Positions 5,154 through 17,670 of a DNA stretch of 22,445 nucleotides are shown here, piece after piece. The stretch's first letter is position 1. Every line of letters begins with the position of its first letter. Source of the DNA: an uncultured virus (IMG/VR IMGVR_UViG_3300042515_002586). Taxonomy: Duplodnaviria; Heunggongvirae; Uroviricota; Caudoviricetes. The notes beneath the pieces are model-generated. The model ran no database searches and was not told the origin of the DNA. It saw only the letters and a program-made list of their open reading frames with translations. The stretch lies in IMG/VR virus record IMGVR_UViG_3300042515_002586. One strand, given 5' to 3'. The translations under genes were made by a program, and so were the position numbers.

Positions 5154-5352
5154 TAGTTAATTTACAATAAGCATAAGCCCATTTTAAGTACTTTGCATAT
5201 TCATATCCTACATAAGATTGAGGTAATTGAGCATTTAAATGAACTGAATTCTTATAGAAATATACACATAAAAATTGATCATTAATGTTGTAATAAAATT
5301 CGTTGATACCCCAACCAAACCACGATTCAAATGCGTAAATTTTCATGTTCAT
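5140..5352 (-). CDS. small aromatic-rich paralog family protein (array 1)
   Basis: (MN)MKIYAF...YCKLTNEIL. Confidence 0.75.
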   Translation of the reverse strand: MNMKIYAFESWFGWGINEFYYNINDQFLCVYFYKNSVHLNAQLPQSYVGYEYAKYLKWAYAYCKLTNEIL

Positions 5353-5509
5353 TTGTTAATTTATTATGTTGAATAATAAAACTAGAAGAGTAATTTAAAA
5401 CTATATTTTTATAGTCATAAGTAAAAATAATATAAAAACAAGTGTCATATTCAAATGGATTATAAGAAAAGAATTTACTTTTAGCATCAAGAAAAAAATC
5501 AAATTTCAT
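5327..5509 (-). CDS. small aromatic-rich paralog family protein (array 1)
   Basis: MKFDFF...HNKLTNE; ATGA overlap at its start. Confidence 0.75.
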   Translation of the reverse strand: MKFDFFLDAKSKFFSYNPFEYDTCFYIIFTYDYKNIVLNYSSSFIIQHNKLTNEHENLRI

Positions 5510-5694
5510 TCTTTAGAAAAATATTCGTAATCTAATTCTTGAGTTATTTTATTATACTTAAGAGTAAAAGTATAGTGATCAAAAATTATTAAATGTCTTG
5601 AAGGATTAGAGACAATTCTAAAAATTTCCTCAGAATTTAATTTAACATAAAAATAATGACGACGAGAAAAAGTCAAAAAACTATCAAATTTCAT
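5506..5694 (-). CDS. small aromatic-rich paralog family protein (array 1)
   Basis: MKFDSF...YNKITQEL; ATGA overlaps at both ends. Confidence 0.75.
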   Translation of the reverse strand: MKFDSFLTFSRRHYFYVKLNSEEIFRIVSNPSRHLIIFDHYTFTLKYNKITQELDYEYFSKE

Positions 5695-5879
5695 TGGTGT
5701 ATAATAGTACTAAGTTTACTCAATGCCTCTGTTAATTTATTATATTTAATTATACGCCGATTATAACTGAAGTTTATTAAACCATAATCATAGTTAAAAA
5801 TAATGCACAAAGATTTGTTTTTAATTAAATCATATCTATGATAATGACGACCTGTGTCTATAAAGTATGAATATTTCAT
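5691..5879 (-). CDS. small aromatic-rich paralog family protein (array 1)
   Basis: MKYSYF...YNKLTEAL; shares IIFxYDY with 5327..5509. Confidence 0.75.
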   Translation of the reverse strand: MKYSYFIDTGRHYHRYDLIKNKSLCIIFNYDYGLINFSYNRRIIKYNKLTEALSKLSTIIHQ

Positions 5880-6061
5880 TAATTCCTTATCTCAGTATAC
5901 TGCTCAAATTCTTCAGTTAAGTTATTATATTCAAGATTACTGACTTGCATAAAAGGGTGGTATTCTAAATAACTATAGTCTGAATCAAAATAAATATAAA
6001 CCATAGCTATACAAGCATAGTAGCTATAACCTGAAACTATAGAATAATCTTCAATTTCCAT
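5879..6061 (-). CDS. small aromatic-rich paralog family protein (array 1)
   Basis: Ends YNNLTEEF; TAATG overlap with the next gene. Confidence 0.7.
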   Translation of the reverse strand: MEIEDYSIVSGYSYYACIAMVYIYFDSDYSYLEYHPFMQVSNLEYNNLTEEFEQYTEIRN

Positions 6062-6269
6062 ATTTTGGGTAATTAGTTTGATTGGTTATTTTATTATAAT
6101 AACGTCTAGTAGATCTTTCTTGGTAAATTAATTCAATACCTTCACTTCTATTGATGTAAAATTTAATATTAACACAAAATTGACGATCTAATGAATAAAA
6201 TGTAAAATTATGATTAGAATTCTGCGGGTTTTTAGGGTGTGTAAATAAGTGTTTATATGAGAAAATCAT
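6051..6269 (-). CDS. small aromatic-rich paralog family protein (array 1)
   Basis: Start moved from 6281 to 6269 (MIFSYK...), which gives an ATGA overlap with 6266..6445; ends YYNKITNQ. Confidence 0.7.
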   Translation of the reverse strand: MIFSYKHLFTHPKNPQNSNHNFTFYSLDRQFCVNIKFYINRSEGIELIYQERSTRRYYNKITNQTNYPKYGN

Positions 6270-6445
6270 CGTGCTATCCATACATCTTCAGTTAACAAAG
6301 TGTATATACAATTAACAGAATACCCACAAGTAATAGATAGTTTTGTATCACCAAGATCTATATACATTGGATATTTTATTGTATTATACCTATAACATGG
6401 AACGTTATCGCCAATACCCCAAAATGAAAAACAAGAAAATTTCAT
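6266..6445 (-). CDS. small aromatic-rich paralog family protein (array 1, 59 aa)
   Basis: Not in ORF track: MKFSCFSFWGIGDNVPCYRYNTIKYPMYIDLGDTKLSITCGYSVNCIYTLLTEDVWIAR. Confidence 0.75.
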   Translation of the reverse strand: MKFSCFSFWGIGDNVPCYRYNTIKYPMYIDLGDTKLSITCGYSVNCIYTLLTEDVWIAR

Positions 6446-6534
6446 TAGTTTTTCTTTAGAAAAGCATTAGATAAAATAAACAGAAGTAAGATAAATAAAA
6501 CAAAAGCAGTTATAAGTAAAATGATTATTTCCAT
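6445..6534 (-). CDS. single-TM micro-protein (29 aa)
   Basis: Hand translation MEIIILLITAFVLFILLLFILSNAFLKKN; its TAA overlaps the ATG of the first array-1 gene. Confidence 0.6.
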   Translation of the reverse strand: MEIIILLITAFVLFILLLFILSNAFLKKN

Positions 6535-6545
6535 AATTTATTGAT

Positions 6546-6824
6546 TCAATCAAAGTAGTCTAAATAGTCATCATTTAGCTTTTGTTTTTCTTTACTCCAT
6601 TGAATATGTCTGTTGCTTAAACATCGCTCACAACGGCAACGATGATTAGTGCCTTTTCCTTCATTAATTAAATACATTTTTCTATAAGTTAAAAAAGAAG
6701 TAAATCTGGGATCTGACCAATAACGTCTATTTTTATGCCACTTCCATTCAGAATATATTCTTTTATTTAATCTATTTTTTACTCTTTCTGTAAAATGTCT
6801 TCTAATTGACCTGCTTCTTTCCAT
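6546..6824 (-). CDS. Arg-rich hypothetical protein with CxCxxC motif
   Basis: RSRSIRRH N-terminus and CRCERC; probable metal binding. Confidence 0.7.
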   Translation of the reverse strand: MERSRSIRRHFTERVKNRLNKRIYSEWKWHKNRRYWSDPRFTSFLTYRKMYLINEGKGTNHRCRCERCLSNRHIQWSKEKQKLNDDYLDYFD

Positions 6825-7056
6825 CTAACAAAATTTTTGGTTGATTAAAATAGTCATGTATTCCTTTTAATGATATCAATAAAAATAAGATATTGAGAAT
6901 CATAAAAGGAAGTGTATTTACTATAACAGAATAAACTAATAAACAGCTTGTTCCTACTATATTAATAGTATGCCAAGCTAAATCATTAATTTTATTATTT
7001 GTTTTTAAAAAATAACTTAATAAAGTAAGAAACATTCCTATTAAACCAATGATCAT
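6802..7056 (-). CDS. CBU_0592-like three-TM membrane protein
   Basis: IGLIG..LTLLSY, NIVGTSCLLVYS and PFMILN pattern recalled for the CBU_0592 family. Confidence 0.7.
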   Translation of the reverse strand: MIIGLIGMFLTLLSYFLKTNNKINDLAWHTINIVGTSCLLVYSVIVNTLPFMILNILFLLISLKGIHDYFNQPKILLDGKKQVN

Positions 7057-7361
7057 TTTATTTTCCCACTATTTCTTCTTTCTCTACGTTGTGCTCTAAA
7101 AGATTCCATATCTTCATCATTTAATTCAGAATAAATTCCTTTATCTTTAATAGGAAATGAAATAAGATCTCCTATATTAAATTTAGTAACATAAATAGGT
7201 GCAAAACTATATTGCCAAATAGGTCTAAGAAAAAAACCTTTCTTATATAAACAAGTCCTATATATAAATTTAAACCATACAATACAAGACACATTATCTG
7301 GAAAGTTAATTTTTACTGGATACCAAGCAAACCATTTTTGAGAAATTGTAATTTTATCCAT
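7053..7361 (-). CDS. phage hypothetical protein (WFAWYPV motif)
   Basis: KWFAWYPVK...VWF motif recurrent among phage hypotheticals (from memory). Confidence 0.7.
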   Translation of the reverse strand: MDKITISQKWFAWYPVKINFPDNVSCIVWFKFIYRTCLYKKGFFLRPIWQYSFAPIYVTKFNIGDLISFPIKDKGIYSELNDEDMESFRAQRRERRNSGKIK

Positions 7362-7462
7362 TATACATCATCTTCATTATTAAGCCACTCAATCCATTCA
7401 AGAAATAAAGATACCATAACTATCAAAAAAATAATAAAAACAATTGCTGTAATAATTGGCAT
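7361..7462 (-). CDS. single-TM micro-protein (33 aa)
   Basis: Hand translation MPIITAIVFIIFLIVMVSLFLEWIEWLNNEDDV; TAATG overlaps at both ends. Confidence 0.65.
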   Translation of the reverse strand: MPIITAIVFIIFLIVMVSLFLEWIEWLNNEDDV

Positions 7463-7869
7463 TATTCATCACTTTCCCTATCAATCATATCTTGCATTCT
7501 CTCTCTTATATACTCAGCATATTCTGGGGAAGTAACAATTGTTTTATAATGTTCAGCATGTTTCTGTGTCCTAAAAGAATTACAGTATTTAGAAGCGTGT
7601 TCTAATTCACATGAACCTTTTCTTACTATTCCATTAATACTTAAATACCAGCCTTTTTGATTACCTTTAGGAATGTATTGAGTATAAATTTCTCTTGGAA
7701 TTACAAATTCTTTAATAAATACATCTATTGAATAACTTTCTGGTATTGGTGAACCGCTTTGCCAACAAAGTAATACTTTGTTATTTACTACACCTAAAAA
7801 AATTACTGTACCAGCACGGCTTTCAACTAAGTCTTGTGGTTTTAGTGCTTTAAATTGTTCTTGTGTCAT
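7462..7869 (-). CDS. phage hypothetical protein
   Basis: 135 aa; C-half YIPKGNQKGWYL...NSFRTQKHAE resembles 18260..18460. Confidence 0.7.
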   Translation of the reverse strand: MTQEQFKALKPQDLVESRAGTVIFLGVVNNKVLLCWQSGSPIPESYSIDVFIKEFVIPREIYTQYIPKGNQKGWYLSINGIVRKGSCELEHASKYCNSFRTQKHAEHYKTIVTSPEYAEYIRERMQDMIDRESDE

Positions 7870-7871
7870 TT

Positions 7872-8273
7872 CTATTTTTCGTATTCTCTAATAAATGCTT
7901 CAATAGTTGTATCAATATCAAAGTCATTCATTCTCCATTGACAATTACCAGCACCACCATGTGATGGCCAAATAAGGCCACAGTATTTTGTACCAGGTAA
8001 ATAAACTAAGTAATAATCCAAATCATTTCTTTCAACAGCAACTTCTAAATCTATGCTTACCCACTTTTCAAAAAAAGAGTCATCCCTCCAAAGTGCAATA
8101 GGGTGAGTTTTAATTGCTCTTTTAATATAGTCAAATACTCTTTCGCCACTAGGTAAAACTAATCCAGATTTAAGATTAGATTTTTCTGGTTCTTTAGTTT
8201 CTATATTGTTTAAAATAATTGCAGCTTGTTGTGCTGCGACAGAAAGATTTTGTAGTGCTTGAGTTGGAGTCAT
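7872..8273 (-). CDS. hypothetical protein
   Basis: 133-aa ORF with AAGGA RBS and ATGA overlap. Confidence 0.75.
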   Translation of the reverse strand: MTPTQALQNLSVAAQQAAIILNNIETKEPEKSNLKSGLVLPSGERVFDYIKRAIKTHPIALWRDDSFFEKWVSIDLEVAVERNDLDYYLVYLPGTKYCGLIWPSHGGAGNCQWRMNDFDIDTTIEAFIREYEK

Positions 8274-8491
8274 TTTTCTTCCTTATCTAGATATATTTTA
8301 ATTGGGAATTTTGGCTCGTAATTTGGATTCATAGCTGACATAACATAAATAGTTGCTACTACCATACAATGAGACAATGCAAATAATGGTTTAAGTAATG
8401 AGTGTCTTGCATACATTATAATATGTTCTTCTTCTAAACCTTCTACCCAAACTGGGCAAAAACCATATAACCCTTTATTTCTTTTTTTCAT
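8270..8491 (-). CDS. hypothetical protein, one hydrophobic segment
   Basis: 73-aa ORF, GLYGFCPVW motif. Confidence 0.65.
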   Translation of the reverse strand: MKKRNKGLYGFCPVWVEGLEEEHIIMYARHSLLKPLFALSHCMVVATIYVMSAMNPNYEPKFPIKIYLDKEEK

Positions 8492-8504
8492 TTTAATTTT
8501 TTTT

Positions 8505-8696
8505 TTATTTTTGTGGGTGATTTTTAACTATTTCTCTTAAAATATAATAAGAAAGTATACAATGACCACATCTGTAAATTGAAATCATACTACCATACAT
8601 ACCTAAGCCTATGTAATGATCTTCTGCTGTTAAACCTGTTACATAATAAAATGTTCTATAAAGCTTAGATTCAAAAATATAGTTTCTATTATTCAT
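8505..8696 (-). CDS. probable divergent member of the small paralog family
   Basis: 63 aa, Tyr-rich; SYYILREIV resembles SYYKLRQEIV of 13478..13636. Confidence 0.6.
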   Translation of the reverse strand: MNNRNYIFESKLYRTFYYVTGLTAEDHYIGLGMYGSMISIYRCGHCILSYYILREIVKNHPQK

Positions 8697-9018
8697 TAAA
8701 ATTTATTTTAATATAACCCTCAAATTTCTTGTCTTTTAATTCTCTTAAAACACTATAACCTTCAAATAAAAAATTAATTTCTTTTGTTTTACCTATAGAA
8801 CTAGATTTAATTACTTCTTGTATTCTATCAATTTCTTCTTTTGCATCGTTAAAATTAGTCTCATCTCTAAATTCTTCTGTACCATGCTTATGTAAAGCAG
8901 CACCATGAATTAAGTTTAATAAATTATCTAAATCTCCACCAGAGACTAGATAAGTACTCTCAACATGGTCAATTATTTGTTCCCATTCTTCTTTAGTTGC
9001 TTTTCTATATTTTCTCAT
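8689..9018 (-). CDS. hypothetical helical protein
   Basis: 109-aa charged ORF, not of the array family. Confidence 0.7.
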   Translation of the reverse strand: MRKYRKATKEEWEQIIDHVESTYLVSGGDLDNLLNLIHGAALHKHGTEEFRDETNFNDAKEEIDRIQEVIKSSSIGKTKEINFLFEGYSVLRELKDKKFEGYIKINFNE

Positions 9019-9223
9019 AATAATTTGTTAGGTAATTATAAACTATTAAAGGCTTGTTTGTATAAAGAGTATAATCAGTATAGACTACAGTAGATCTTAT
9101 TGTAAGTGCTTTTAAGTATTTATCAAAAACAATATGAAATGTTTTATGTTGTTCAAAATCAAAATCATAAGAATATTGATAATCAGTACAATATTGAGAA
9201 GTATAAAAAATATTAAAAACCAT
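9005..9223 (-). CDS. small aromatic-rich paralog family protein (array 2)
   Basis: MVFNIF...YNYLTNY. Confidence 0.7.
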   Translation of the reverse strand: MVFNIFYTSQYCTDYQYSYDFDFEQHKTFHIVFDKYLKALTIRSTVVYTDYTLYTNKPLIVYNYLTNYYEKI

Positions 9224-9503
9224 TATTAGTTACTTCATTATTTAAACAATTAAATTCTATATTAGGAAAAAGTATTCGTGAATTTTTTAAAACACAAAAA
9301 GAATCATGATTAAGGTCTGTATTCAAACAAGAGGTAAGATAATCAAATTCTATAGATTCTTTACGAAGAGAAATATGAATATTAGAATAAGAAAAAGCAG
9401 GATAAATATTTATTTTTCCAGGTTTTGATTTAAAAAAAATGAAGTTCAATTTCTTAAAATTTTTTTGGATTAATCTAAAACTTTGGGACATAAAACTTAT
9501 CAC
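9213..9503 (-). CDS. small aromatic-rich paralog family protein (array 2)
   Basis: Motif variants FDYLTS and FNCLNNEV; start uncertain. Confidence 0.6.
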   Translation of the reverse strand: MISFMSQSFRLIQKNFKKLNFIFFKSKPGKINIYPAFSYSNIHISLRKESIEFDYLTSCLNTDLNHDSFCVLKNSRILFPNIEFNCLNNEVTNNGF

Positions 9504-9690
9504 TCAATATATCAGTTAATTTATTATAATTATAGTATTTTTTACCTAATTTGTATGTAGATTCTATATTATAAAATATCTCTATTAAACTACCTAAATT
9601 AGTTATTCTAATTGAATTGTTATTAGAATTTTTAAACGAATAAGTAGAAAGTCCAATTACGCCAGCATCATCTATAAAATCAAATATCAT
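9475..9690 (-). CDS. small aromatic-rich paralog family protein (array 2)
   Basis: MIFDFI...YNKLTDIL. Confidence 0.75.
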   Translation of the reverse strand: MIFDFIDDAGVIGLSTYSFKNSNNNSIRITNLGSLIEIFYNIESTYKLGKKYYNYNKLTDILSDKFYVPKF

Positions 9691-9694
9691 ATAC

Positions 9695-9964
9695 TTATTT
9701 TATAATCTCGTAATAGCTTTTCAAAGTATAAGCTTTAGTTTTAGTTTGAACAATATGTATTTTATCTTTAGTAATTTCATCTGTTAAGGTATCATAATAA
9801 GTAATATGACTTAAGTTAGCTAAATCATAAGCTATGATTATTTTATTTGAAGAATTAGTCCGTTTAGTATTAAAACGACCATCAAAATTAATTTCAAAGG
9901 GCATATAAAAACCATTATACTCATAATTAAATCCCCTAGAATATCTACAACGCCTAAAAATCAT
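9695..9964 (-). CDS. small aromatic-rich paralog family protein (array 2)
   Basis: Start moved from 10021 to 9964 (MIFRRC...) by family consensus; YDTLTDEI. Confidence 0.65.
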   Translation of the reverse strand: MIFRRCRYSRGFNYEYNGFYMPFEINFDGRFNTKRTNSSNKIIIAYDLANLSHITYYDTLTDEITKDKIHIVQTKTKAYTLKSYYEIIK

Positions 9965-10262
9965 ATATACCTCTATGAACATCAGAATTATATTGATAAA
10001 GATAATAAAAACTAGAAACATCTAATAAGTTATTAGTCAAACAACTATAAATAAATGTTGATTGAAAAGTAGTTTTTTTAGAGTTTTCTAAGTAAGCTAA
10101 ACTAATTTTATTATCTATAAAATGAATACAAATAGGATTAATTTTTGAATCATAAGTAGGCTTAGTATAATTAAAACAATTATCAATAAAATCATAAAAA
10201 GGTAGCTTTTTACGTTTTGTAATTTTAAGTATACGAAGTATATTCATGTAAAATAATTTCAT
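9954..10262 (-). CDS. small aromatic-rich paralog family protein (array 2)
   Basis: Likely start MKLFY at 10262 (uncertain); YSCLTNNL. Confidence 0.6.
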   Translation of the reverse strand: MKLFYMNILRILKITKRKKLPFYDFIDNCFNYTKPTYDSKINPICIHFIDNKISLAYLENSKKTTFQSTFIYSCLTNNLLDVSSFYYLYQYNSDVHRGIYDF

Positions 10263-10461
10263 TAGTTGATAGACAATATTCAATACGTAGTTTACCAACA
10301 TGTAAAACATGCCAAAGAAAAACTAGTGATGTGTTTAATTTTGCTGTTGTAGTAGTTTTCCAAATAGTAAATTCTATATCTGTTCTTTTATATGTATAAT
10401 GACAAAAATCTGAATATACCCACGCCTCAAAATTATTTATATAAACTAGATTACTTTCCAT
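10225..10461 (-). CDS. small aromatic-rich paralog family protein (array 2)
   Basis: YCLSTNEII. Confidence 0.7.
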   Translation of the reverse strand: MESNLVYINNFEAWVYSDFCHYTYKRTDIEFTIWKTTTTAKLNTSLVFLWHVLHVGKLRIEYCLSTNEIILHEYTSYT

Positions 10462-10711
10462 ATTTGTTTTTATGAAGAACTAATTCTTCATTTAGTATAT
10501 TATAAGAATTAATAATATGAGCAGAATATAAATATTCAAATGGAAAGTGAGTTATAGGAAAAACATATTCAGAATGGAAATAATAAATATTAATTGATTT
10601 ATTATTTCCAAAAGAAATTAAAAATCCTTTATACTTAAAATCTTTTGATACCCCATTTCGAAAAGTAATAGGATAACTATGTTGATCTATAACATACTTT
10701 TTAAATTGCAT
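10451..10711 (-). CDS. small aromatic-rich paralog family protein (array 2)
   Basis: MQFKKY...YNILNEEL. Confidence 0.7.
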   Translation of the reverse strand: MQFKKYVIDQHSYPITFRNGVSKDFKYKGFLISFGNNKSINIYYFHSEYVFPITHFPFEYLYSAHIINSYNILNEELVLHKNKYGK

Positions 10712-10980
10712 GGTAGTTTCTTATTATGGTTCATAAGAACATGAAATTTCTCAGTATCCATAATATAACGAGCAGAATAGTTTGAGTATTCAGTTTTAAT
10801 AAAGTGAACACTTAATTCATTAGCTAGAATCTCATATGATTTTAAGTTATTAGAATAATATAATTCAATCTCTCCGTGTGTTGTTATAGAAATTAAAACA
10901 TTAGAATATAAAAAATCTAAAAAGAATACAACACCTTTGTAAATAACAAGTGCACTGCGATTGTATGTTGAAAATTTCAT
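10687..10980 (-). CDS. small aromatic-rich paralog family protein (array 2)
   Basis: MKFSTY...YEILANEL; shares DFxYxxxLIS...IxxYY with 10451..10711. Confidence 0.7.
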   Translation of the reverse strand: MKFSTYNRSALVIYKGVVFFLDFLYSNVLISITTHGEIELYYSNNLKSYEILANELSVHFIKTEYSNYSARYIMDTEKFHVLMNHNKKLPCNLKSML

Positions 10981-11168
10981 ATTATTTGATTTGTTGGAAG
11001 ATATAAACTAAAAAGTTTCTTATCATCGTGAAGAAACATTATCTCATTATAAGAAAACCAAATAGTAAAATAGTACATAGTTAGATTTCTATAAGAAAAA
11101 TCACGGCAGTCAATATAAAGTATAAAATTCATTTTAATACTACTTCCAAATCCAATAAGGTGCTTCAT
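10977..11168 (-). CDS. small aromatic-rich paralog family protein (array 2)
   Basis: Ends LYLPTNQII with ATGA overlap; start may be MNFILY at 11132. Confidence 0.6.
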   Translation of the reverse strand: MKHLIGFGSSIKMNFILYIDCRDFSYRNLTMYYFTIWFSYNEIMFLHDDKKLFSLYLPTNQII

Positions 11169-11322
11169 ACCTTAATTCTTCTGTCAAAATATTATAATAA
11201 CAAAATAAGTACCCATTAGCAAAAATCTTAATACTTGGCCCATTAAAACCAAAACCTAATTTATTAAGACTATTTAAATGTCTATAGCTGTGTTCACGGA
11301 AGACATATCTTTCGTATTTCAT
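11140..11322 (-). CDS. small aromatic-rich paralog family protein (array 2)
   Basis: MKYERY...YNILTEEL. Confidence 0.75.
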   Translation of the reverse strand: MKYERYVFREHSYRHLNSLNKLGFGFNGPSIKIFANGYLFCYYNILTEELRYEAPYWIWK

Positions 11323-11600
11323 ATAAATAATGGTTCTGGTCTTTTTTGATGTTTATTAATTGTAAAAATGTTAGTTAATGCACAATAATCAATTTTATAA
11401 GTTTGATAACAATTCTGAATTAAACAAAAAACCTCAGTTTTCCTAATAGTAATTTTTTCTGTTGTTTTAGTACGACAATAACTAACAATAAATATATTCC
11501 TATCAGTGTTAGTTAATGTATTAGTTAAGCAATATTGATAATTAAAACCAAGTACTTCTCCAAAACGACTAAGATTATGATCAATTTTATTAAAAATCAT
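11319..11600 (-). CDS. small aromatic-rich paralog family protein (array 2)
   Basis: MIFNKI...YCALTNIF. Confidence 0.7.
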   Translation of the reverse strand: MIFNKIDHNLSRFGEVLGFNYQYCLTNTLTNTDRNIFIVSYCRTKTTEKITIRKTEVFCLIQNCYQTYKIDYCALTNIFTINKHQKRPEPLFI

Positions 11601-11626
11601 ATAGTTATAAATTCCGACTTATTTTA

Positions 11627-11986
11627 TTATTGTAACTTAGCTTTAGGACTATAAACTAACATTTTAGATTTAGAAGAAGAAAGTTCAATACGAAAATTAT
11701 CTATGTGGAAATCAAATGTAATTGTTGTATAGTTGCAAATATAACCATAAGAAAAAGTAAAGTGTTTCCAACTTACTGGAGGAACAATACAGTATTCAAA
11801 TTCATTAAAGTTGTATGTTAATTTAGAATCCATATAATAACAAAAACGATGGGGAGCTTCATTATTTTCTTTAAAAGTAAAAATCACATTTCCTCTACTA
11901 ATTTTAATTAAAAAATTTTGTGTTTTATTTAAAAAAGCATAACTTAAAGAGTTATCATCGTTAACTCCAAATAATTGAAATTCCAT
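11627..11986 (-). CDS. paralog family protein, probable two-unit fusion (119 aa)
   Basis: Start moved to MEFQLF at 11986 (TAATG overlap with upstream stop); internal YYMDSKLTYN then a second unit-like half. Confidence 0.65.
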   Translation of the reverse strand: MEFQLFGVNDDNSLSYAFLNKTQNFLIKISRGNVIFTFKENNEAPHRFCYYMDSKLTYNFNEFEYCIVPPVSWKHFTFSYGYICNYTTITFDFHIDNFRIELSSSKSKMLVYSPKAKLQ

Positions 11987-12198
11987 TATATTTTGATTTT
12001 GAGATTTTCCCAAGATTGAGTAAGTAAATTATACTCAAAGAATAGATTTAAATTGTACACTGAAGGATCAGTGTGAAGTACATACTCAGCAACATAAATT
12101 GTATACTTATCTATACCATAACGTAATGAAAATTCCCCTCTAGTATTAAAATAATAAAAAGCAGGAATTATTTCGTTATTATAAACTTTAAATTTCAT
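11986..12198 (-). CDS. small aromatic-rich paralog family protein (array 2)
   Basis: MKFKVY...YNLLTQSW. Confidence 0.75.
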   Translation of the reverse strand: MKFKVYNNEIIPAFYYFNTRGEFSLRYGIDKYTIYVAEYVLHTDPSVYNLNLFFEYNLLTQSWENLKIKI

Positions 12199-12425
12199 TA
12201 TCTATAGTTTAGTTCCTCTGTAAGGATATTATAAAATGTATATACGTTATGGCCTTTAGCACTCATATTTAAACTTTCAAAATTACTATCAGTAATAGTA
12301 ACCATTACTCTACTAAAACTTATTTTAAATATTGTTGCTTCTGATTTAGATCCGTAATCGTAGGAACGATAACTATAACTAGTAGTCCCATTTGAAGGAT
12401 ATCTTCTAATACATATAAATTTCAT
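12198..12425 (-). CDS. small aromatic-rich paralog family protein (array 2)
   Basis: MKFICI...YNILTEEL. Confidence 0.75.
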   Translation of the reverse strand: MKFICIRRYPSNGTTSYSYRSYDYGSKSEATIFKISFSRVMVTITDSNFESLNMSAKGHNVYTFYNILTEELNYR

Positions 12426-12595
12426 ATTGAATTATGCCACACTTCATTTGTTAAAATATTATAATTAAAAGAACCTGTTCCATCATAAAGCCAAAATGAG
12501 ATAACTTCAGACAACATTAAAATACTTATATTGTATGTAAATTCATTTCTTAAAGTATAATCAAATTCATAATCTTCAAAACTAAAAAATATCAT
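12422..12595 (-). CDS. small aromatic-rich paralog family protein (array 2, 57 aa)
   Basis: Not in ORF track: MIFFSFEDYEFDYTLRNEFTYNISILMLSEVISFWLYDGTGSFNYNILTNEVWHNSI; ATGA overlaps at both ends. Confidence 0.75.
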   Translation of the reverse strand: MIFFSFEDYEFDYTLRNEFTYNISILMLSEVISFWLYDGTGSFNYNILTNEVWHNSI

Positions 12596-12747
12596 ATAAA
12601 TATCTCATCTATTTGTTTATCATAACTACAATAATAATGACCATTATAATAAAAAGATATAAAGTGAGGTGCATTTATTATACTATTAAAATATATTTTG
12701 TGCCTATACCTATATAAGCCCATCTTAATAAACTGTGAAAATATCAT
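12592..12747 (-). CDS. small aromatic-rich paralog family protein (array 2, 51 aa)
   Basis: Not in ORF track: MIFSQFIKMGLYRYRHKIYFNSIINAPHFISFYYNGHYYCSYDKQIDEIFI; ATGA overlaps at both ends. Confidence 0.75.
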   Translation of the reverse strand: MIFSQFIKMGLYRYRHKIYFNSIINAPHFISFYYNGHYYCSYDKQIDEIFI

Positions 12748-12914
12748 TTAGTTATACTCTCAGTTAGTTTATTATAACTTATTCTATTTTTATAGTTATA
12801 AGTAATATGTATGTTCTCAAATCTAACACTTATTTCAATAAAAGTTACAGTATAAATCTGTTCTGAATAAGTCCACCAGTGTTGTATATCAAGAAAGTGA
12901 ACTGAAAATTTCAT
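12744..12914 (-). CDS. small aromatic-rich paralog family protein (array 2, 56 aa)
   Basis: Not in ORF track: MKFSVHFLDIQHWWTYSEQIYTVTFIEISVRFENIHITYNYKNRISYNKLTESITK; ATGA overlaps at both ends. Confidence 0.75.
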   Translation of the reverse strand: MKFSVHFLDIQHWWTYSEQIYTVTFIEISVRFENIHITYNYKNRISYNKLTESITK

Positions 12915-13117
12915 AGTATACCTTCAGTTAATAAAGAATAAGTATATAAAGTGCAAGGGTGATAACGCAAAGCAATTGAATTATCAATAAACAAAACACT
13001 AACTAAAAAAGGTGTAATTATTCTATATTCTGATATGAGTTTTTGAATAAGTGTATACTCATAATAAGAATGAGTAGGACAAATAGATTCTTGAGCATAA
13101 AAAAGATTTAATATCAT
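12911..13117 (-). CDS. small aromatic-rich paralog family protein (array 2)
   Basis: MILNLF...YSLLTEGIL; close paralog of 13278..13481. Confidence 0.75.
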   Translation of the reverse strand: MILNLFYAQESICPTHSYYEYTLIQKLISEYRIITPFLVSVLFIDNSIALRYHPCTLYTYSLLTEGIL

Positions 13118-13281
13118 TTAGTCACTTCATTTGTTAGTTTACAATATTTAGAATATCTGTAACTACCAATATAAAAATTCATTTTATTATCTCTAATAGT
13201 AATAAAAAAACTTAAATTACTATTATTTTGCCTATAAGAGTATTCTTCCACAATAAAATCATAAAATGAATAAAATCTCAT
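13114..13281 (-). CDS. small aromatic-rich paralog family protein (array 2, 55 aa)
   Basis: Not in ORF track: MRFYSFYDFIVEEYSYRQNNSNLSFFITIRDNKMNFYIGSYRYSKYCKLTNEVTK; ATGA overlaps at both ends. Confidence 0.75.
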   Translation of the reverse strand: MRFYSFYDFIVEEYSYRQNNSNLSFFITIRDNKMNFYIGSYRYSKYCKLTNEVTK

Positions 13282-13481
13282 CTTATATTACCAGTTAATC
13301 GGCAATAAGTACATAAAGTAAAATAACCAAATCGGAAAACAATTAAGCCATCAATAAACAAGAAAATAAGAGAATTACTATTTTTTAAAATAGTGGTATA
13401 AGCATGATATAAAATTCTTGGTCCAAAGCTATACTCGTAAAAAATTAATTCTGAATTAAAATAAAATTGATATGGTTTCAT
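13278..13481 (-). CDS. small aromatic-rich paralog family protein (array 2)
   Basis: MKPYQF...YCRLTGNIR. Confidence 0.75.
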   Translation of the reverse strand: MKPYQFYFNSELIFYEYSFGPRILYHAYTTILKNSNSLIFLFIDGLIVFRFGYFTLCTYCRLTGNIR

Positions 13482-13636
13482 ACTATTTCTTGTCTTAGTT
13501 TATAGTAAGAAAAATAATAAATCCCATCCCACCAAAAATGAATAAATCCATCGTTATATCTAATATTAGTTGTACGGAATGATGTTTTGGTTTTTACATA
13601 AACAAATTCAGACTTATAATATCTACGTAAAATCAT
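13478..13636 (-). CDS. small aromatic-rich paralog family protein (first gene of array 2, 52 aa)
   Basis: Not in ORF track: MILRRYYKSEFVYVKTKTSFRTTNIRYNDGFIHFWWDGIYYFSYYKLRQEIV; ATGA overlap with the next gene. Confidence 0.7.
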   Translation of the reverse strand: MILRRYYKSEFVYVKTKTSFRTTNIRYNDGFIHFWWDGIYYFSYYKLRQEIV

Positions 13637-13638
13637 AT

Positions 13639-13665
13639 AAAATAAAAAGGGGCATTTCTGCCCCT
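13639..13665 (-). terminator. Rho-independent terminator
   Basis: Minus strand AGGGGCA-GAAA-TGCCCCT followed by TTTTATTTT. Confidence 0.85.
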
Positions 13666-13688
13666 ATAAACAATAAGTTTTGTATACC

Positions 13689-13773
13689 AATGTTTTTATT
13701 TTGTTAAAGTACTAAGGAAACCTAGAAACCTACCTTTAAACAAAATGGTAATTATAAAACTACCATAAACATT
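13689..13773. other. structured non-coding segment (candidate sRNA/leader)
   Basis: Nested inverted repeats: 13689-13695/13767-13773, 13699-13709/13734-13745, 13745-13750/13761-13766; tandem GAAACCTA x2 at 13717-13732. Confidence 0.35.
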
Positions 13774-13779
13774 TTTTAA
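13751..13779 (-). promoter_or_regulatory. possible sigma70-type promoter
   Basis: Minus strand TTAAAA-N17-TATAAT; weak evidence in DNA this AT-rich. Confidence 0.25.
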
Positions 13780-14315
13780 CCTAATTTAATTTTAAACTTT
13801 CGAGATTTGTTTGGATTATGTGGATTAACAAGAGCTACTGGAGAATTAAATCTAATAAAACCCTTCAAGTCATAACTCTTAAAGAATGCAGAGGTGTTAG
13901 GATTAGCAATACGAAATCCATTTCTGTTAACATGATAATCCTTATCACCAGCTAACTTTTCAGTAGCTCTGATAAAAGCAATTGATCTTGCAATTCTACC
14001 GTCAAACTGATCGTCTTGGTGAGGTGAAGCTACGCCTTCAGCAATTACTTCATAATCTTCAAAAGTGAGTTTTCTATTCTCATTAAGCACATTCATGTCT
14101 TTTAATCTTCTAATAATACATGTAGTAACTTTTTTTACAATTGAAGCTTTTCTACTTCTTACTACTTCAACATTTTGTGTAGAAAAATCAACTCTGATTC
14201 CTTGTTCTCTTAAGCTATTTGTTTTTTGCTTGTGTCTTTCTTGAGTTGTTTGTTGGTGAAGTTCCCGGAGTTCTTGCCGGAGAATTGCTGCTGATCGTTG
14301 ATCTTGGTTATTCAT
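13776..14315 (-). CDS. phage hypothetical protein
   Basis: EGVASPHQDDQFDGRIARSIAFIRA resembles the recurrent phage motif GxAxxxxxDxFxxxxxxxIAxxRA; coiled N-terminus. Confidence 0.75.
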   Translation of the reverse strand: MNNQDQRSAAILRQELRELHQQTTQERHKQKTNSLREQGIRVDFSTQNVEVVRSRKASIVKKVTTCIIRRLKDMNVLNENRKLTFEDYEVIAEGVASPHQDDQFDGRIARSIAFIRATEKLAGDKDYHVNRNGFRIANPNTSAFFKSYDLKGFIRFNSPVALVNPHNPNKSRKFKIKLG

Positions 14316-14804
14316 TTATTTTTTCCTTTTGTATTTTGGGATTGTTGGTACTTTATAATCATGGGGAAGAATAGTTACTCTAACTCTTCTTCTACCAAAC
14401 TTATAAGCCTCTGCTCTGTTAGACATGGCAATATCTATTTTATTGCCTTTAATCATGCCTCCAGTATCTAAAGCTGTAGCATATCCAGTATACCAAGGAC
14501 TTTGTATGTAAACCTTTGTATACAGGGGAATTACTCTAGGGTCCACTGCTATGACCCCTGGCTTTACAGCATGGCCTGTAGCAGTCTTAGGACCACCTTG
14601 AATGCCTGGTCCTGCATAATAAGCAGAAGCATTCATAACAAGAGTTTTATTTCTAGATAAACCTCTTGATGTTAAGTTACTGTAATATCTTGATGACTTT
14701 ACAGAACTTTCTTTTGTTGAAACCTTACTAGTAAGTAAGGTTGGATTGTTCCCTATAGTTGTTGAAATTGTTAACAACAGAAGGGAAAGTAAATATTGTA
14801 ACAT
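14316..14804 (-). CDS. 3D (Asp-Asp-Asp) domain protein, MltA/SPS-like lytic transglycosylase, secreted or anchored
   Basis: ASAY, TATG, GVIAVDPRVIPL, ALDTGGMIKGNKIDI and FGRR motifs; hydrophobic N-terminus; GGGAGG RBS. Confidence 0.92.
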   Translation of the reverse strand: MLQYLLSLLLLTISTTIGNNPTLLTSKVSTKESSVKSSRYYSNLTSRGLSRNKTLVMNASAYYAGPGIQGGPKTATGHAVKPGVIAVDPRVIPLYTKVYIQSPWYTGYATALDTGGMIKGNKIDIAMSNRAEAYKFGRRRVRVTILPHDYKVPTIPKYKRKK

Positions 14805-14860
14805 AAGTTACCTCCCATATATATTTTTTTTATTTAAAAATATTAGTGTAATAAATTTAC

Positions 14861-15037
14861 TTATTTTTTACCCGCATTAACTTTCTTACCACAAACTGTA
14901 CAAGTTTTAGGTGCTGATTCTGATTTTTGATCAGAAGAAGTATAAACTCTCTTACCTTTACCATAAATTCTGTCTTGGTATTGTGCTGAAAGTGTGTTTC
15001 CTGCTGCGTTACTTACGCAATTACATTGTATAATCAT
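14861..15037 (-). CDS. small zinc-ribbon-like protein (58 aa)
   Basis: Not in ORF track: MIIQCNCVSNAAGNTLSAQYQDRIYGKGKRVYTSSDQKSESAPKTCTVCGKKVNAGKK; CxC plus CTVC; AAGGA RBS. Confidence 0.8.
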   Translation of the reverse strand: MIIQCNCVSNAAGNTLSAQYQDRIYGKGKRVYTSSDQKSESAPKTCTVCGKKVNAGKK

Positions 15038-15068
15038 TTGTATTTCCTTTTAGTAGGGTGTTTTAAAT

Positions 15069-15254
15069 TTACCATATATCGTCGTCACTACTTTCTAATT
15101 TAGTAAGTGTTGTTGGATCAAGATCTATATTCGCCTTTGTACGACTCATACAGATAACTGTTCTAGGTTCATGATCATAAAAAGTTAGTGGTGTTACAAC
15201 ATGACCTTCAATTAACCCATCGGTGACATAATCACCACGTTTAAATTCTATCAT
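15069..15254 (-). CDS. hypothetical protein (possible SH3/KOW-like barrel)
   Basis: FKRGDYV...GHVV pattern. Confidence 0.6.
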   Translation of the reverse strand: MIEFKRGDYVTDGLIEGHVVTPLTFYDHEPRTVICMSRTKANIDLDPTTLTKLESSDDDIW

Positions 15255-15279
15255 AACTATCGAAATAAGTTCAAAAGTT

Positions 15280-15504
15280 TTAATTAAGTGTTTTTTTGAA
15301 CTCTAATATTCTTAAATTAACTAAAGATTTCCGCATATCTAAAATATCAACACCTTTTAAATATTCATTTAAAGGATGTTGAATTTCTTTGACTGTAGGG
15401 TTTATTCTTTTTAATCCATCTTTAATAGCTTCTTCTAATGATGTGTGGTAAAGATTAGACAATACCACATTATTAATAACCATTAAGTAAACATGTTCAA
15501 ACAT
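15280..15504 (-). CDS. hypothetical protein
   Basis: 74-aa ORF. Confidence 0.65.
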   Translation of the reverse strand: MFEHVYLMVINNVVLSNLYHTSLEEAIKDGLKRINPTVKEIQHPLNEYLKGVDILDMRKSLVNLRILEFKKTLN

Positions 15505-15505
15505 A

Positions 15506-15739
15506 TTAAGTTAGTGTATTTTCTTCTAAGAAAGGAAGCCCATTTGGAAAGAAATGGGTGGGTTCAAATTCTACTTCCCTAAAAGTACCCTTATAAACCC
15601 ACCTACCAGATTCTCCATCTTCACGGTACAACCAAGTAGCCCTGACAGTCTTCTTAGTATTAGTAATAACTTCTACCTTACCTTCAGTACTTGCATACTT
15701 AATATCAGCTATATATAATGGAAAAACTTCTGTAAGCAT
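15506..15739 (-). CDS. hypothetical protein
   Basis: 77-aa ORF ending ...GRWVY...EPTHFFP. Confidence 0.65.
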   Translation of the reverse strand: MLTEVFPLYIADIKYASTEGKVEVITNTKKTVRATWLYREDGESGRWVYKGTFREVEFEPTHFFPNGLPFLEENTLT

Positions 15740-15742
15740 ATT

Positions 15743-16306
15743 TTACTTATCAGTATCTACGTTTTGAGTAGTTTTTCTGAAAGACATAGGCTGATCAGAA
15801 ATGTGAATTTCTCCACCACCCCTGTAATGTTGATGGTAAACATCATTAGTATCAAACCAATAAAGATATTCTACTGATGACCCATAAGTACCATCATCTC
15901 CTGGTAATTGGTAAGAGTAATATGTTTTACCATTAATGGTCATTCTTTCAGGATATGTACCATTAACACTAGACCAATTAGAAACTAAATCACTTGGAAT
16001 TAATCTCTTTGAAGAACTTGTTACCTTGCCTTTAACAGTAGACTGAAATACAATATCTCCAGTGAAAGGAGAAATAATATATAGGTACTTAATAGAACCT
16101 GGTTTATTATCTCTTAATAGTCTTTCAGCAATGTTTCTTTGTTCTACAGTATTGCCATTTGCATCAGGTTTAACTTGTACTGTAGCAAGTTTAACTCCAG
16201 ATGCTGATTCAACAGTTTGATCTGATCGTAAACTATCACAACCAGTTAAACCCACAAATAGTAGTAAAAGAATGAAGAGATAAGAGAATTTGTTTAATGT
16301 TTTCAT
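15743..16306 (-). CDS. lipoprotein
   Basis: Basic N-terminus, hydrophobic core and lipobox LTG-C; GKVTS and DGTYGSS motifs. Confidence 0.8.
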   Translation of the reverse strand: MKTLNKFSYLFILLLLFVGLTGCDSLRSDQTVESASGVKLATVQVKPDANGNTVEQRNIAERLLRDNKPGSIKYLYIISPFTGDIVFQSTVKGKVTSSSKRLIPSDLVSNWSSVNGTYPERMTINGKTYYSYQLPGDDGTYGSSVEYLYWFDTNDVYHQHYRGGGEIHISDQPMSFRKTTQNVDTDK

Positions 16307-16329
16307 ATTAGTATTTTTGTGTAGTTGAA

Positions 16330-16773
16330 TTAGTTTTCAATATAAGCTGCTACTTCTCTTGGAAGAGGATCACTAGCACCTTTAGGTAGTTTACCTACAT
16401 TAGTAAAGTCATAATTTTCTTTAGCCATCATTGCATTATACTCAGCAGCTAAACCGTTATAACTTGCCTTTAAACCATCAAGTTCACTTGACCATTGTGC
16501 AAGAGTTAACCTATCTTCTCGATTCCAATCTTGTGGTTTAGTGTCTCCGTATGATTTATTCAAAGAATCAATTTTAGTCTTAAAAGCATTAAGACTTGCT
16601 TTCTTTGCTTCTAATGCAGCATACATTTCTTTAAAGGTTTCATACCTTGAAAGTAAAGTACTTGCTTTGGTTTCATTGAATACAGTTGATGATGCGTCTG
16701 AAACGTACCCACAACCTACTGTTAGAATTGATAGTGCTACAATAGCACCCATAATTGATGTTTTGTTATTCAT
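16330..16773 (-). CDS. coiled-coil lipoprotein
   Basis: Hydrophobic N-terminus with lipobox-like TVG-C; long heptad helices; AAGGA RBS. Confidence 0.75.
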   Translation of the reverse strand: MNNKTSIMGAIVALSILTVGCGYVSDASSTVFNETKASTLLSRYETFKEMYAALEAKKASLNAFKTKIDSLNKSYGDTKPQDWNREDRLTLAQWSSELDGLKASYNGLAAEYNAMMAKENYDFTNVGKLPKGASDPLPREVAAYIEN

Positions 16774-16798
16774 TGTATTTGTTTTCCTTCAAATTAAT

Positions 16799-16969
16799 TT
16801 AGTCAATGTATAAAATATCAGTAGAATTAATAACTAGATTAATAATACCCTGTTGTTTAAATGCGTGAAACTGAGTATTAGGATTAGTTACTAAAGCGTC
16901 TAGAATTTTATCAACTACGTCTTGTTCTATAACTAAAGTTGTACCATTTTTGAAATGTATTGTTCTCAT
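16799..16969 (-). CDS. small hypothetical protein (56 aa)
   Basis: Not in ORF track: MRTIHFKNGTTLVIEQDVVDKILDALVTNPNTQFHAFKQQGIINLVINSTDILYID. Confidence 0.7.
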   Translation of the reverse strand: MRTIHFKNGTTLVIEQDVVDKILDALVTNPNTQFHAFKQQGIINLVINSTDILYID

Positions 16970-16973
16970 AATG

Positions 16974-17336
16974 TTAAATTGGAATTAATTTATCCCCATC
17001 TTTATTTAATCTGTAACAAGGATTTAATTCTAAAATTTCTTTTCTCCATTCTTCCATATTTTTCTCACAACAACCATTACAACCAAACTCATCTGGATGC
17101 CATTTAGATTCACAATGTTGACATTTAATTATATATCTAACTTCTAATGTTGGGTTTTCAACATAGTATGGTAAATCTACATGTCTTCTTACTTGTGCAG
17201 CAAAGTCATCAAAATACCTGGAAACTTCTTGTTGAGATGGTGGTTTTTTATGGGGCCAAGTTATATCTAACTTGATAAAAGCATCCTCAATTTCGCTCCT
17301 AAATTTAGGTTTTGGAATATTAATTTGTTCACTCAT
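16974..17336 (-). CDS. hypothetical protein with CxxC...CxxCC metal-binding motif
   Basis: CQHC and CNGCC. Confidence 0.7.
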   Translation of the reverse strand: MSEQINIPKPKFRSEIEDAFIKLDITWPHKKPPSQQEVSRYFDDFAAQVRRHVDLPYYVENPTLEVRYIIKCQHCESKWHPDEFGCNGCCEKNMEEWRKEILELNPCYRLNKDGDKLIPI

Positions 17337-17669: not shown

Positions 17670-17670
17670 T

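Follow-up and report, generated by a model that had tools for sequence, protein, structure and literature searches.

A paralogous family of micro-proteins is encoded in two minus-strand arrays, with one outlying member at 8505-8696, on a 22,445-nt stretch of DNA (hereafter, the window) from an uncultured virus (IMG/VR IMGVR_UViG_3300042515_002586). About 6 kb of phage DNA is taken up by some 25-30 back-to-back genes for these tiny Tyr-rich proteins. A preliminary description of the sequence had reported a tandem array of tiny ORFs, which was confirmed, and had read it as a library of binders on a small beta-sheet scaffold, an interpretation that is partly supported. In our estimate there is an even chance that the family represents a lineage-specific expansion of host-directed micro-effectors, forming a panel of all-beta meander binders or inhibitors, a function that we infer.

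The parent contig measures 146,445 bp. All genes of the window share one strand and are for the most part ORFans, the PHROG matches being a 3D-domain peptidase, pentapeptide proteins and phrog_6519. Since no phage hallmark gene was found in the window, the terms 'phage' and 'early' are used here as inferences.

Two arrays of tiled genes

All 21 intact ORFs previously reported for array 1 (9005-13636) were recovered at the same coordinates, following each other almost without gaps. Together these ORFs, each 50 aa or longer, occupy 99.4% of this region on the minus strand, and its plus strand has none of that length; 300 mononucleotide shuffles gave a mean of 1.35 ORFs (maximum 4) and 5% cover (maximum 21%). 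Five ORFs noted as missing from the ORF track are real (57, 51, 56, 55 and 52 aa) and appear at a lower length threshold, so a 60-aa cut-off accounts for their absence. The proposed length span of 51-119 aa holds when the longest ORF is read from its in-frame ATG, but not from its TTG. Likewise, the ORFs are present within the proposed array limits, but the family extends further, to 4941-6445 (array 2) and 8505-8696. The latter, separated from array 1 by the unrelated ORF 8689-9018, resembles 11140-11322 with a pairwise z of 8.9.

Of 28 junctions at which an ORF of either array or 8505-8696 lies upstream, 13 are overlaps of 4 nt (ATGA), and the genes thus chained are therefore probably translated together. 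All eight junctions of the compact zone of array 1 are overlaps of 4 nt or 1 nt. At the downstream end, long overlaps (-86 and -68 nt) suggest that the real starts of 9954-10310 and 9695-10021 are internal. Array 1 appears to begin directly behind a promoter-like site and a hairpin with a stem of 7 pairs (-15.1 kcal/mol for a 71-nt stretch, z -2.2), a putative terminator or attenuator.

The genes of both arrays are real, as established by their tiling relative to shuffles and by their orthologues. For every paralogue tested, relatives carry a separate orthologue. All seven orthologues, at 60-99% identity, retain frame and motif and differ in length by no more than 2 aa, while the loops vary. 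Identity reaches 91% (P0004) and 69% (P0019) in the compact zone and 89%, 92% and 98% (P0005, P0007 and P0009) in array 2, and is 60% for P0015, equal in length to 11140-11322.

Table 1. Positions of array features in the window and results of family tests (counts out of 200 or 500 refer to shuffles)
Feature	Position	Strand	Basis or test
Sigma-70-like site TTAAAA-17-TATAAT, upstream of hairpin	13779-13751	-	Pattern scan
G+C-rich hairpin then T-run, 11 nt before first array-1 gene	13648..13665	-	Pattern scan, sequence
Array 1 compact zone, nine ORFs of 51-75 aa	11986..13636	-	Leave-one-out HMM: 7/9 above all 200 shuffles, 2/9 equalled by 1/200
Compact-zone ORFs	13478-13636, 13278-13481, 13114-13281, 12911-13117, 12744-12914	-	
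Compact-zone ORFs, remainder	12592-12747, 12422-12595, 12198-12425, 11986-12198	-	
ORF, 128 aa (TTG start) or 119 aa (ATG start at 11986)	11627..12013	-	No significant family signal: full HMM not significant, motif-block 214/500
93-aa member, YCALTN, longer tail	11319..11600	-	Motif-block 1/500; full HMM not significant
60-aa core member, YNILTEE	11140..11322	-	Leave-one-out 28.9 bits, 0/200
ORF of 63 aa	10977-11168	-	No significant family signal: motif-block 319/500, full HMM E 0.78
ORF of 97 aa, degenerate YEILANE	10687-10980	-	No significant family signal: motif-block 81/500, full HMM E 0.52
Weaker member, 86 aa, YNILNEE	10451-10711	-	Leave-one-out 39/200
Weaker member, 78 aa, YCLSTNE	10225-10461	-	Leave-one-out 4/200
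Array 1 downstream end, five ORFs	9005..10310	-	
YSCLTNN ORF	9954-10310	-	Motif-block 49/500; no significant family signal
YDTLTDE ORF	9695-10021	-	Motif-block 1/500
YNKLTD ORF	9475-9690	-	Leave-one-out 0/200
FNCLNNE ORF	9213-9503	-	Motif-block 9/500
YNYLTN ORF	9005-9223	-	Leave-one-out 14/200
63-aa outlying member, YYILREIV	8505..8696	-	A1 HMM E 0.0016, outside training set; motif-block 2/500
Array 2, eight family ORFs of 59-76 aa	4941..6445	-	Leave-one-out: 6/8 above all 200 shuffles; 6051-6281 1/200; 5879-6061 11/200
Array-2 ORFs	6266-6445, 6051-6281, 5879-6061, 5691-5879	-	
Array-2 ORFs, remainder	5506-5694, 5327-5509, 5140-5352, 4941-5153	-	

Family relatedness, shared motif and predicted fold

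Common to the micro-proteins, most of which have 51-78 aa, are M-K/I-F at the N-terminus, a Tyr at about position 15 and a motif, Y-[NC]-x-L-T-[NE]-E-hydrophobic, located 9-33 residues before the C-terminus, with T, x and E as its best-conserved positions. Among the 29 ORFs of the two arrays, 21 contain the form Y-[NCSTD]-x-[LI]-T, compared to 2 of the 45 remaining minus-strand ORFs, and residue shuffles (n=2000) contain it in a mean of 0.73 proteins (maximum 5). Every C-terminal motif string listed in the preliminary description was found, but its statement that most proteins begin with M-[KI]-F was too generous: the exact match holds for 8 of 21, and M-[KIRVQ]-[FYL] for 14 of 21 compared to 0 of 45 other ORFs. 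The cores are rich in Tyr, Phe and Ile. The reported Tyr/Phe enrichment is borne out by an aromatic content of 21% versus 11% in other ORFs, and Lys is depleted, so the aromatic richness is not merely AT-richness. Codon entropy at the motif Leu (1.68 versus a background of 1.75) and Thr (1.21 versus 1.22) equals the background, and the conservation therefore operates at the protein level.

About 25 ORFs bear the family signature. In a strict leave-one-out HMM test of 22 members, 16 scored above every one of 200 shuffles of themselves and a further 3 were equalled by only 1/200, so that about 19 pass. Pairs with z >3 amount to 39/253 within the family and 2/322 among controls, and cross-array pairs reach z 8.5. 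Four of the 21 array-1 ORFs gave no significant family signal in the full HMM and motif-block tests (Table 1), and among these 11627-12013 may be either a divergent member whose tail is long or an insert outside the family. When 1.84 billion protein representatives were searched with a profile, 17 matches were obtained at E <= 0.001, all of them proteins of the window itself or orthologues of these, and a search of Pfam and PHROGs with 29 ORFs gave nothing below E 0.01. The units thus form a real protein family and, as had been suspected, an unrecognised one. Judging from these searches, it is confined to one lineage of uncultured AT-rich lake viruses.

Tandem duplication, as earlier proposed, is supported by the greater closeness of neighbouring paralogues (mean z 3.41, dominated by one pair of z 34.9, versus 1.14 for distant ones). 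Mutual profile similarity of the units, which had been named in advance as a check, was found between array 2 and array 1 by hhalign (probability 90.2%, E 1.5e-6), but with only 15 motif columns aligned. Without the first three residues and the motif, no more than 2 of the 22 cores scored above their shuffles (threshold <=2/200); the paralogue cores have diverged beyond sequence recognition. Owing to these two results, a single scaffold is not proven by sequence.

AlphaFold2 predicted the same all-beta meander for two members, in agreement with the suggested beta-strand-like pattern. The model of 11140-11322 has five strands and a short helix (pLDDT 71.7, pTM 0.50), and that of the second member six strands (pLDDT 81.2, pTM 0.57). 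Both were built from one paralogue alignment, so they are not independent and deserve moderate confidence. The claim of a shared scaffold is favoured by two beta-rich models, but the sequence likeness rests on the termini. A structural search with both models returned no match, the weak best rows (Z 5.0-5.8) being single-layer or fibre beta sheets under the noise level of the tool (typical best Z of 7-8 for unmatched models). In both models the motif forms a strand end, a turn and the last strand of the sheet, with the highest pLDDT there.

A common tag on unrelated bodies is possible as well, though we hold it unlikely. The C-terminal motif would then be a linear peptide docking to a single host hub or phage protein as common partner, with the N-terminal bodies as adaptors or cargo and conservation reflecting the partner instead of a fold. 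The likeness limited to the termini, the constancy of the motif at varying distances from the C-terminus and its retention in orthologues with changing loops agree with such a tag. Against it, both models place the motif within the sheet, core lengths and beta patterns are similar, and tandem neighbours are closer than distant pairs, as duplication predicts.

Hypervariability, as originally claimed, applies among paralogues but not between strains. In three of the four lake metagenome runs compared, assembled contigs carry both arrays with a sequence identical to that of the window, while the region between them is variable. The arrays are therefore not a strain-level hot spot, and they fit poorly with a fast strain-level arms race. 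Among the runs listed, 7 contain at least half of the sampled words of the window; all are labelled lake water metagenomes, and one may be the source of this DNA.

Proposed role and competing readings

In the favoured reading of host-directed micro-effectors, old tandem duplications would have led to the lineage-specific expansion, and the ATGA-chained genes would probably be translated jointly from long transcripts. Each protein would be a small all-beta meander in which the first and last strands and the turn (the motif), all of them conserved, may hold the fold, whereas variable middle strands and loops would give every paralogue a distinct aromatic surface. By analogy with small-gene clusters expressed early by large phages, the set most likely works inside the infected cell by binding or inhibiting host proteins, for host takeover or counter-defence.

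The SPO1 takeover genes have early promoters of their own and are not known to form one paralogous family, unlike the arrays here. The SPO1 module comprises 26 small genes for proteins with distinct host targets (PMC6873191), and resembles the arrays in gene number (about 26-30 small genes), in the common orientation of the genes and in genome size (about 130-150 kb). SPO1-type similarity was found neither in sequence nor in fold, the only BFVD row of this kind being Staphylococcus phage TreP (E 0.13). Bacillus phage G carries about 35 zinc-ribbon copies as a lineage-specific small-domain expansion (Iyer et al. 2021, PMC7824862), likewise tens of tiny paralogues in a single phage lineage with a function only guessed. 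Unlike these, the array proteins are all-beta and Tyr-rich, not zinc ribbons, and are devoid of Cys pairs, and their genes lie in two tightly coupled arrays of a 146-kb genome that is not jumbo-sized. The T4-type hyperplastic regions provide nearly every ORFan with its own promoter and stem-loop (PeSL) cassette, and their genes are unrelated to each other and strain-variable (Arbiol et al. 2010, PMC2839356). Shared with them are a block of small, apparently accessory ORFans with G+C below the flanks and the promoter-like site and stem-loop heading array 1; the array genes differ in being paralogous, ATGA-joined, without intergenic space and identical to the window in contigs of three of the four lake runs compared.

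It is quite unlikely that the micro-proteins are packaged and ejected, with ...L-T-x-E as a prohead-protease site or capsid-targeting element; after loading into the head and trimming behind the Glu, they would be injected along with the DNA and act at once, similar to T4 internal proteins. The strong conservation of T, x and E suits this route, as the prohead proteases of T4-type and giant phages cut C-terminal to Glu (A-X-E, S/A/G-X-E, S/A/G/T-X-E) and the entry of variable cargo into heads is guided by short capsid-targeting sequences (PMC5694885). The T4 internal and giant-phage ejection proteins described there also combine a short conserved terminal element and a conserved Glu with variable small bodies. 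However, the published targeting sequences and propeptides are N-terminal whereas the array motif lies close to the C-terminal end, and the motifs given there lack the conserved Tyr, Asn/Cys and Leu that precede T-x-E in the arrays. Furthermore, the window has no protease or head gene, and thirty packaged species would be unusual.

An immunity-like array neutralising diverse toxins or effectors directed at the infected cell is very unlikely: polymorphic toxin systems are known to arrange small paralogous immunity genes in tandem (PMC3482391), but the window contains no toxin gene and no Pfam immunity family was matched. Highly improbable, too, is a hetero-oligomer, in which coupled translation would supply paralogues in equal amounts for edge-to-edge stacking into a larger beta structure, for instance a scaffold, a decoration or a body resembling a fibre. 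The thirteen ATGA junctions, the open, aromatic-rich meanders of the models and the sheet-like structural rows point in that direction, but those rows lie under the noise level, pI ranges from 4.1 to 9.7 and no structural genes are nearby.

A nucleotide signal, with the motif as a ribosome-binding, promoter or recombination site and the ORFs incidental or decaying, is largely refuted: compact-zone Glu codons (GAR) do lie 8-14 nt before the next ATG as weak Shine-Dalgarno-like elements and many copies encode Y-N as TATAAT, but TATAAT is missing from the Y-C copies, promoter-like sites show no enrichment (71 versus 84.8 +/- 9.1 in shuffles), the motif stands 9-33 codons from the stop and hence at no fixed distance from the next start, Leu and Thr codons are as diverse as background, ORF tiling is far above chance, and frame and length are retained in orthologues at 60% identity.

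Extent, termini and kinship of the array proteins

An uncultured lake phage carries, in two coupled arrays, a genuine family of about 25-30 paralogous micro-proteins that has not been described before. The preliminary description had placed 21 tandem minus-strand ORFs at 9005-13636 (array 1), and all of them sit at these coordinates, including five that are absent from the ORF track, each shorter than 60 aa. Together they account for 99.4% of this region's minus strand; the plus strand there holds no ORF of at least 50 aa, and 300 shuffles of the same stretch yielded a mean of 1.35 ORFs and 5% cover. ATGA overlaps form 13 of the 28 junctions that have a family ORF upstream. The limits originally set for the family were too narrow, as eight further ORFs with the same termini lie at 4941-6445 (array 2), which brings the array ORFs to 29. 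Moreover, an outlying member at 8505-8696 reached E 0.0016 against a profile built without it. Within array 1, 9954-10310, 10687-10980, 10977-11168 and 11627-12013 gave no significant signal in either the whole-length HMM test or the motif-block test; overall, the motif or an HMM signal is present in approximately 25 ORFs. A single long repeat protein interrupted by stop codons was rejected as a reading, since successive units differ in frame and start at an ATG of their own. An alternative genetic code was likewise rejected, as the ORFs stop at TGA, TAA and TAG and the frame changes at overlaps.

The termini consist of a start M-K/I-F and a motif near the C-terminus, Y-[NCSTD]-x-[LI]-T, extended as L-T-x-E. 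The motif is found in 21 of the 29 array ORFs versus 2 of the 45 other minus-strand ORFs, and the entire plus strand has a single copy; 2000 residue shuffles of the array proteins contained it 0.73 times on average and 5 times at most. The start had been attributed to most units of array 1, where its exact form M-[KI]-F is present in 8 of 21; it is also present in 4/8 ORFs of array 2 and in 0/45 other ORFs. The proposed mutual similarity of the units was supported by leave-one-out HMM searches: 16 of 22 members scored above every one of their 200 shuffles, and for three more a single shuffle of the 200 reached the score (19/22 passing at no more than 1 of 200). The weak members were 9005-9223, 5879-6061 and 10451-10711, and 10225-10461 was reached by 4/200 shuffles. 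Additionally, alignment z exceeded 3 in 39/253 family pairs versus 2/322 control pairs, in which a family member was aligned with some other small ORF. Mean alignment z was 3.41 for neighbours versus 1.14 for non-neighbours, the neighbour mean being dominated by the pair 4941-5153/5140-5352. This pair, at the downstream end of array 2, has by far the highest similarity of all family pairs (41% identity, E 3e-11, z 34.9) and looks like the most recent duplication.

At the sequence level, the shared scaffold claimed for the units rests on the termini. The termini are homologous, and in the profile-profile comparison of array 2 with the compact part of array 1 (11986-13636) the similarity (probability 90.2%, E 1.5e-6) is confined to 15 motif columns. 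When the proteins were trimmed to their cores, by cutting three residues from the N-terminus and the whole C-terminal part beginning at the motif, only 2/22 members were reached by no more than 2 of 200 shuffles; 13/22 stood at no more than 40 of 200, a collective trend that is weak at most. From their tandem position, comparable length and predicted structure, we infer that the cores are homologous as well.

Conservation of the termini is at the protein level. Among 28 motif copies aligned in register, the first base of the Leu codon is C in 10 and T in 15, and the third base of the Thr codon is A in 10 and T in 15. Over the 19 copies with exact Y-x-x-L-T, codon entropy was 1.68 bits at the motif Leu versus 1.75 elsewhere in the same genes, and 1.21 versus 1.22 at the motif Thr. 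Furthermore, the motif stands 9-33 residues ahead of the stop, so its distance to the next start codon is not fixed, and promoter-like sites are not enriched (71 versus 84.8 in shuffles). In the compact zone the motif Glu codons lie 8-14 nt ahead of the next ATG and may double as weak ribosome-binding sites, a role that cannot account for the motif copies further from the next start.

Predicted structure and genomic setting

Two members were modelled with AlphaFold2 from a common 28-row family alignment, and the models are hence not independent. For 11140-11322, five strands and a short helix were predicted (pLDDT 71.7, pTM 0.50), and for 13114-13281 six strands (pLDDT 81.2, pTM 0.57). In both, the motif runs from the end of the penultimate strand through a turn and along the last strand, and is the part predicted with most confidence. 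The predicted family fold is a beta meander. Foldseek searches of both models against PDB and BFVD returned no rows at E <= 0.001. VIA-align against 48,161 chains gave best Z values of 5.0 and 5.8, under the tool's stated noise of 7-8, and its top rows, likewise under the noise level, are single-layer or fibre-type beta sheets. Structure rows from the ESM Atlas reached TM 0.41-0.50 with no usable feature match, and a homodimer prediction for 11140-11322, run without controls, gave a score of 0.02 against a mark of 0.42. The noted Tyr/Phe richness is real, aromatics making up 21% of family residues versus 11% in other ORFs. Tyr is 2.3-fold enriched, Lys is depleted, Cys accounts for 2% of residues, and pI ranges from 4.1 to 9.7.

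Coding is on the minus strand throughout the window, and G+C is 22-25% over both arrays versus 30-34% in the genes towards the high-coordinate end. Only a few of the 40 non-array ORFs scanned have family matches in Pfam or PHROGs, and neither tRNA genes nor Rfam matches were found in the 22.4-kb window.

Annotated genes and putative regulatory elements around the arrays
Feature	Position	Strand	Basis or remark
HTH_3 regulator	2411-2776	minus	family match
phrog_6519 match	8270-8491	minus	PHROGs
7-bp G+C hairpin, then T-run	13665-13648	minus	lies 11 nt ahead of the first array-1 ATG
Sigma-70-like site	13779-13751, ~85 nt upstream of hairpin	minus	pattern scan
3D-domain peptidase	14316-14804	minus	family match
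Pentapeptide-repeat protein	19067-19759	minus	family match
SPL-like radical-SAM protein (spore photoproduct lyase family, PF20903)	20210-21145	minus	E 6.5e-19

The proteins of the window are recorded on a 146,445-bp contig. Gene layout and PHROG matches suggest that the window, which is without a hallmark gene, belongs to an uncultured freshwater phage. No nucleotide match among 50,697 phage records was obtained by megablast with either the array or 14000-22445, and tblastn with the SPL-like protein and the proteins of 306 and 73 aa gave no match in the phage collection. The 306-aa flanking protein has a single relative, at 89% identity. The 3D-domain protein has domain-only tblastn matches in 402 mostly Bacillus/Listeria phage records, at less than 60% identity, which say nothing about kinship. 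The SPL-like radical-SAM protein is encoded by a DNA-repair-type gene that is unusual in a phage.

A promoter cannot fit between the hairpin and the first ATG, so, judging from the sequence layout, array 1 would be transcribed either by read-through or from the upstream sigma-70-like site through the hairpin. Directly downstream of array 2, the ORF 4536-4940 (134 aa) carries F-Y-I-L-T-E at residue 37; its motif-block score was reached by 58/500 shuffles and is not significant. The ORF 3137-3523 (128 aa) has a signal-peptide-like start and a C-terminal GFKF, and from its sequence looks like a small outer-membrane beta-barrel. Such a protein would indicate a Gram-negative host; it has no Pfam match and no relatives beyond itself, and so gives no clue to the host. 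The ORFs 17886-18260 (124 aa) and 18465-19070 (201 aa), neither with a family match, are non-adjacent paralogues (27% identity over 85 aa, E 1.7e-5, all-against-all BLASTP).

Comparison with known systems and putative roles

Among known systems, the closest kind is a large phage in which a tiny protein has undergone lineage-specific expansion. An example is phage G, whose approximately 35 zinc ribbons were called an 'unprecedented' expansion in 2021 (PMC7824862). Copy number and lineage restriction are alike and the domain is different; the paired CxxC of a zinc ribbon occurs in none of the array proteins. T4-type hyperplastic regions consist of ORFans interleaved with promoter and stem-loop cassettes and vary among close strains (PMC2839356). 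The arrays are like these regions in being accessory, low in G+C and made of small ORFs. Unlike them, the arrays have a single promoter/stem-loop element (13779-13648) and 13 ATGA junctions, and are mostly constant, the consensus contigs of three runs being identical to the window over 9621-13442 and 5557-7453. The best functional analogy is the 26-gene host-takeover cluster of SPO1 (PMC6873191). A literature search on tandem small-protein arrays in phages found no paper describing this family, the motif itself not being searchable.

A putative role as a binder repertoire, as first proposed, is plausible for the family. Its boldest form is unlikely: a natural binder library built from some 30 copies of a minimal Tyr-rich beta-meander frame of approximately 55 aa, every copy being adapted to its own target among host proteins or defence systems. 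Such a library would be the viral equivalent of engineered Tyr/Ser mini-binder scaffolds, and its members would form a new fold class among phage counter-defence proteins. In a variant of this library, L-T-x-E would direct the whole set to one common partner or to the capsid. Alternatively, analogy with prohead-protease and capsid-targeting sequences may suggest that the family consists of packaged proteins. The protease motifs do end in Glu (A-X-E, S/A/G/T-X-E), but the capsid-targeting sequences are N-terminal (PMC5694885), whereas T-x-E here stands 9-33 residues from the C-terminus. Moreover, the family N-terminus offers only M-K/I-F, without a targeting propeptide ending in X-X-E. As for immunity to polymorphic toxins, no toxin-like Pfam match was found in the 40 flanking ORFs and no immunity family in the 29 array ORFs.

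Large phages give sizeable blocks of their genomes to tandem families of tiny proteins. The present family is clean and tractable, with approximately 30 members of 51-78 aa, a sharp, mutable motif and orthologues 60-99% identical, in a virus that recurs in lake water metagenome runs. If its members are specific binders of host factors, they would serve as about 30 new probes for a freshwater host that is uncultured, and would supply a new small scaffold too; should they turn out inert or structural, this would put a limit on how frequently arrays of this kind are to be interpreted as anti-defence.

Distribution, orthologues and strain variation

Searches of the 29 array ORFs against Pfam-A and PHROGs gave best E values of 0.044 and 0.011, respectively, all far short of the cut-offs, and 8505-8696 had no match in either. 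A profile search of 1.84 billion representative proteins returned 17 matches at E <= 0.001, all of them the window's own proteins or orthologues, and a word-based protein search returned only the window's own proteins and near-identical orthologues. Judged by these searches, the family is confined to this lineage. A related-locus search of viral contigs with three proteins found none, and two scans of metagenome contigs found no relative's DNA. The protein clusters, however, point to related contigs of 86 kb, 43 kb, 5.6 kb, 1.8 kb and 1.5 kb.

Seven orthologues on other contigs show 99%, 98%, 92%, 91%, 89%, 69% and 60% identity, with length and motif kept in all. Those at 91%, 69% and 60% are recorded on contigs of 1,830 bp and probably share a single one; in that case, paralogues that are neighbours differ greatly in their rate of divergence. 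In the orthologue pairs of 11140-11322 (60%) and 12422-12595 (69%), the first 11 and first 10 residues, respectively, are unchanged. The N-terminal segment differs among paralogues and is the most conserved part between orthologues; it is also the least confident part of the 11140-11322 model.

Among the runs listed, seven hold at least half of the window's sampled words. All are labelled as lake water metagenomes and come from separate studies, dated 2020-2025, and one of them may be the source of this DNA. The virus is also carried by a 2016 run (X8), and RNA runs are absent from the listed holders of window sequence. Contigs of four lake runs were mapped on 4000-15000 and compared as consensus only. 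The pieces 9621-10774, 9834-12828, 11386-13442 and 5557-7453, which together come from three runs, show no difference from the window, and 5109-5727 in array 2 (lake run X7) shows 7. The array proteins, described as hypervariable, are so between paralogues but not between strains, the array contigs being mostly identical to the window. The strain-level hot spot is instead the stretch between the arrays (7017-8473), the most polymorphic of the 11 kb compared. Here, the piece 7017-7864 has 25 differences and a 9-nt deletion at 7389, and 8269-8473 has 12 differences. One lake run joins 7864 to 8269, a 404-nt deletion by which the gene 7872-8273 (133-aa ORF) is lost. The 25 and 12 substitutions, the 9-nt deletion and this junction all lie on the same contig.
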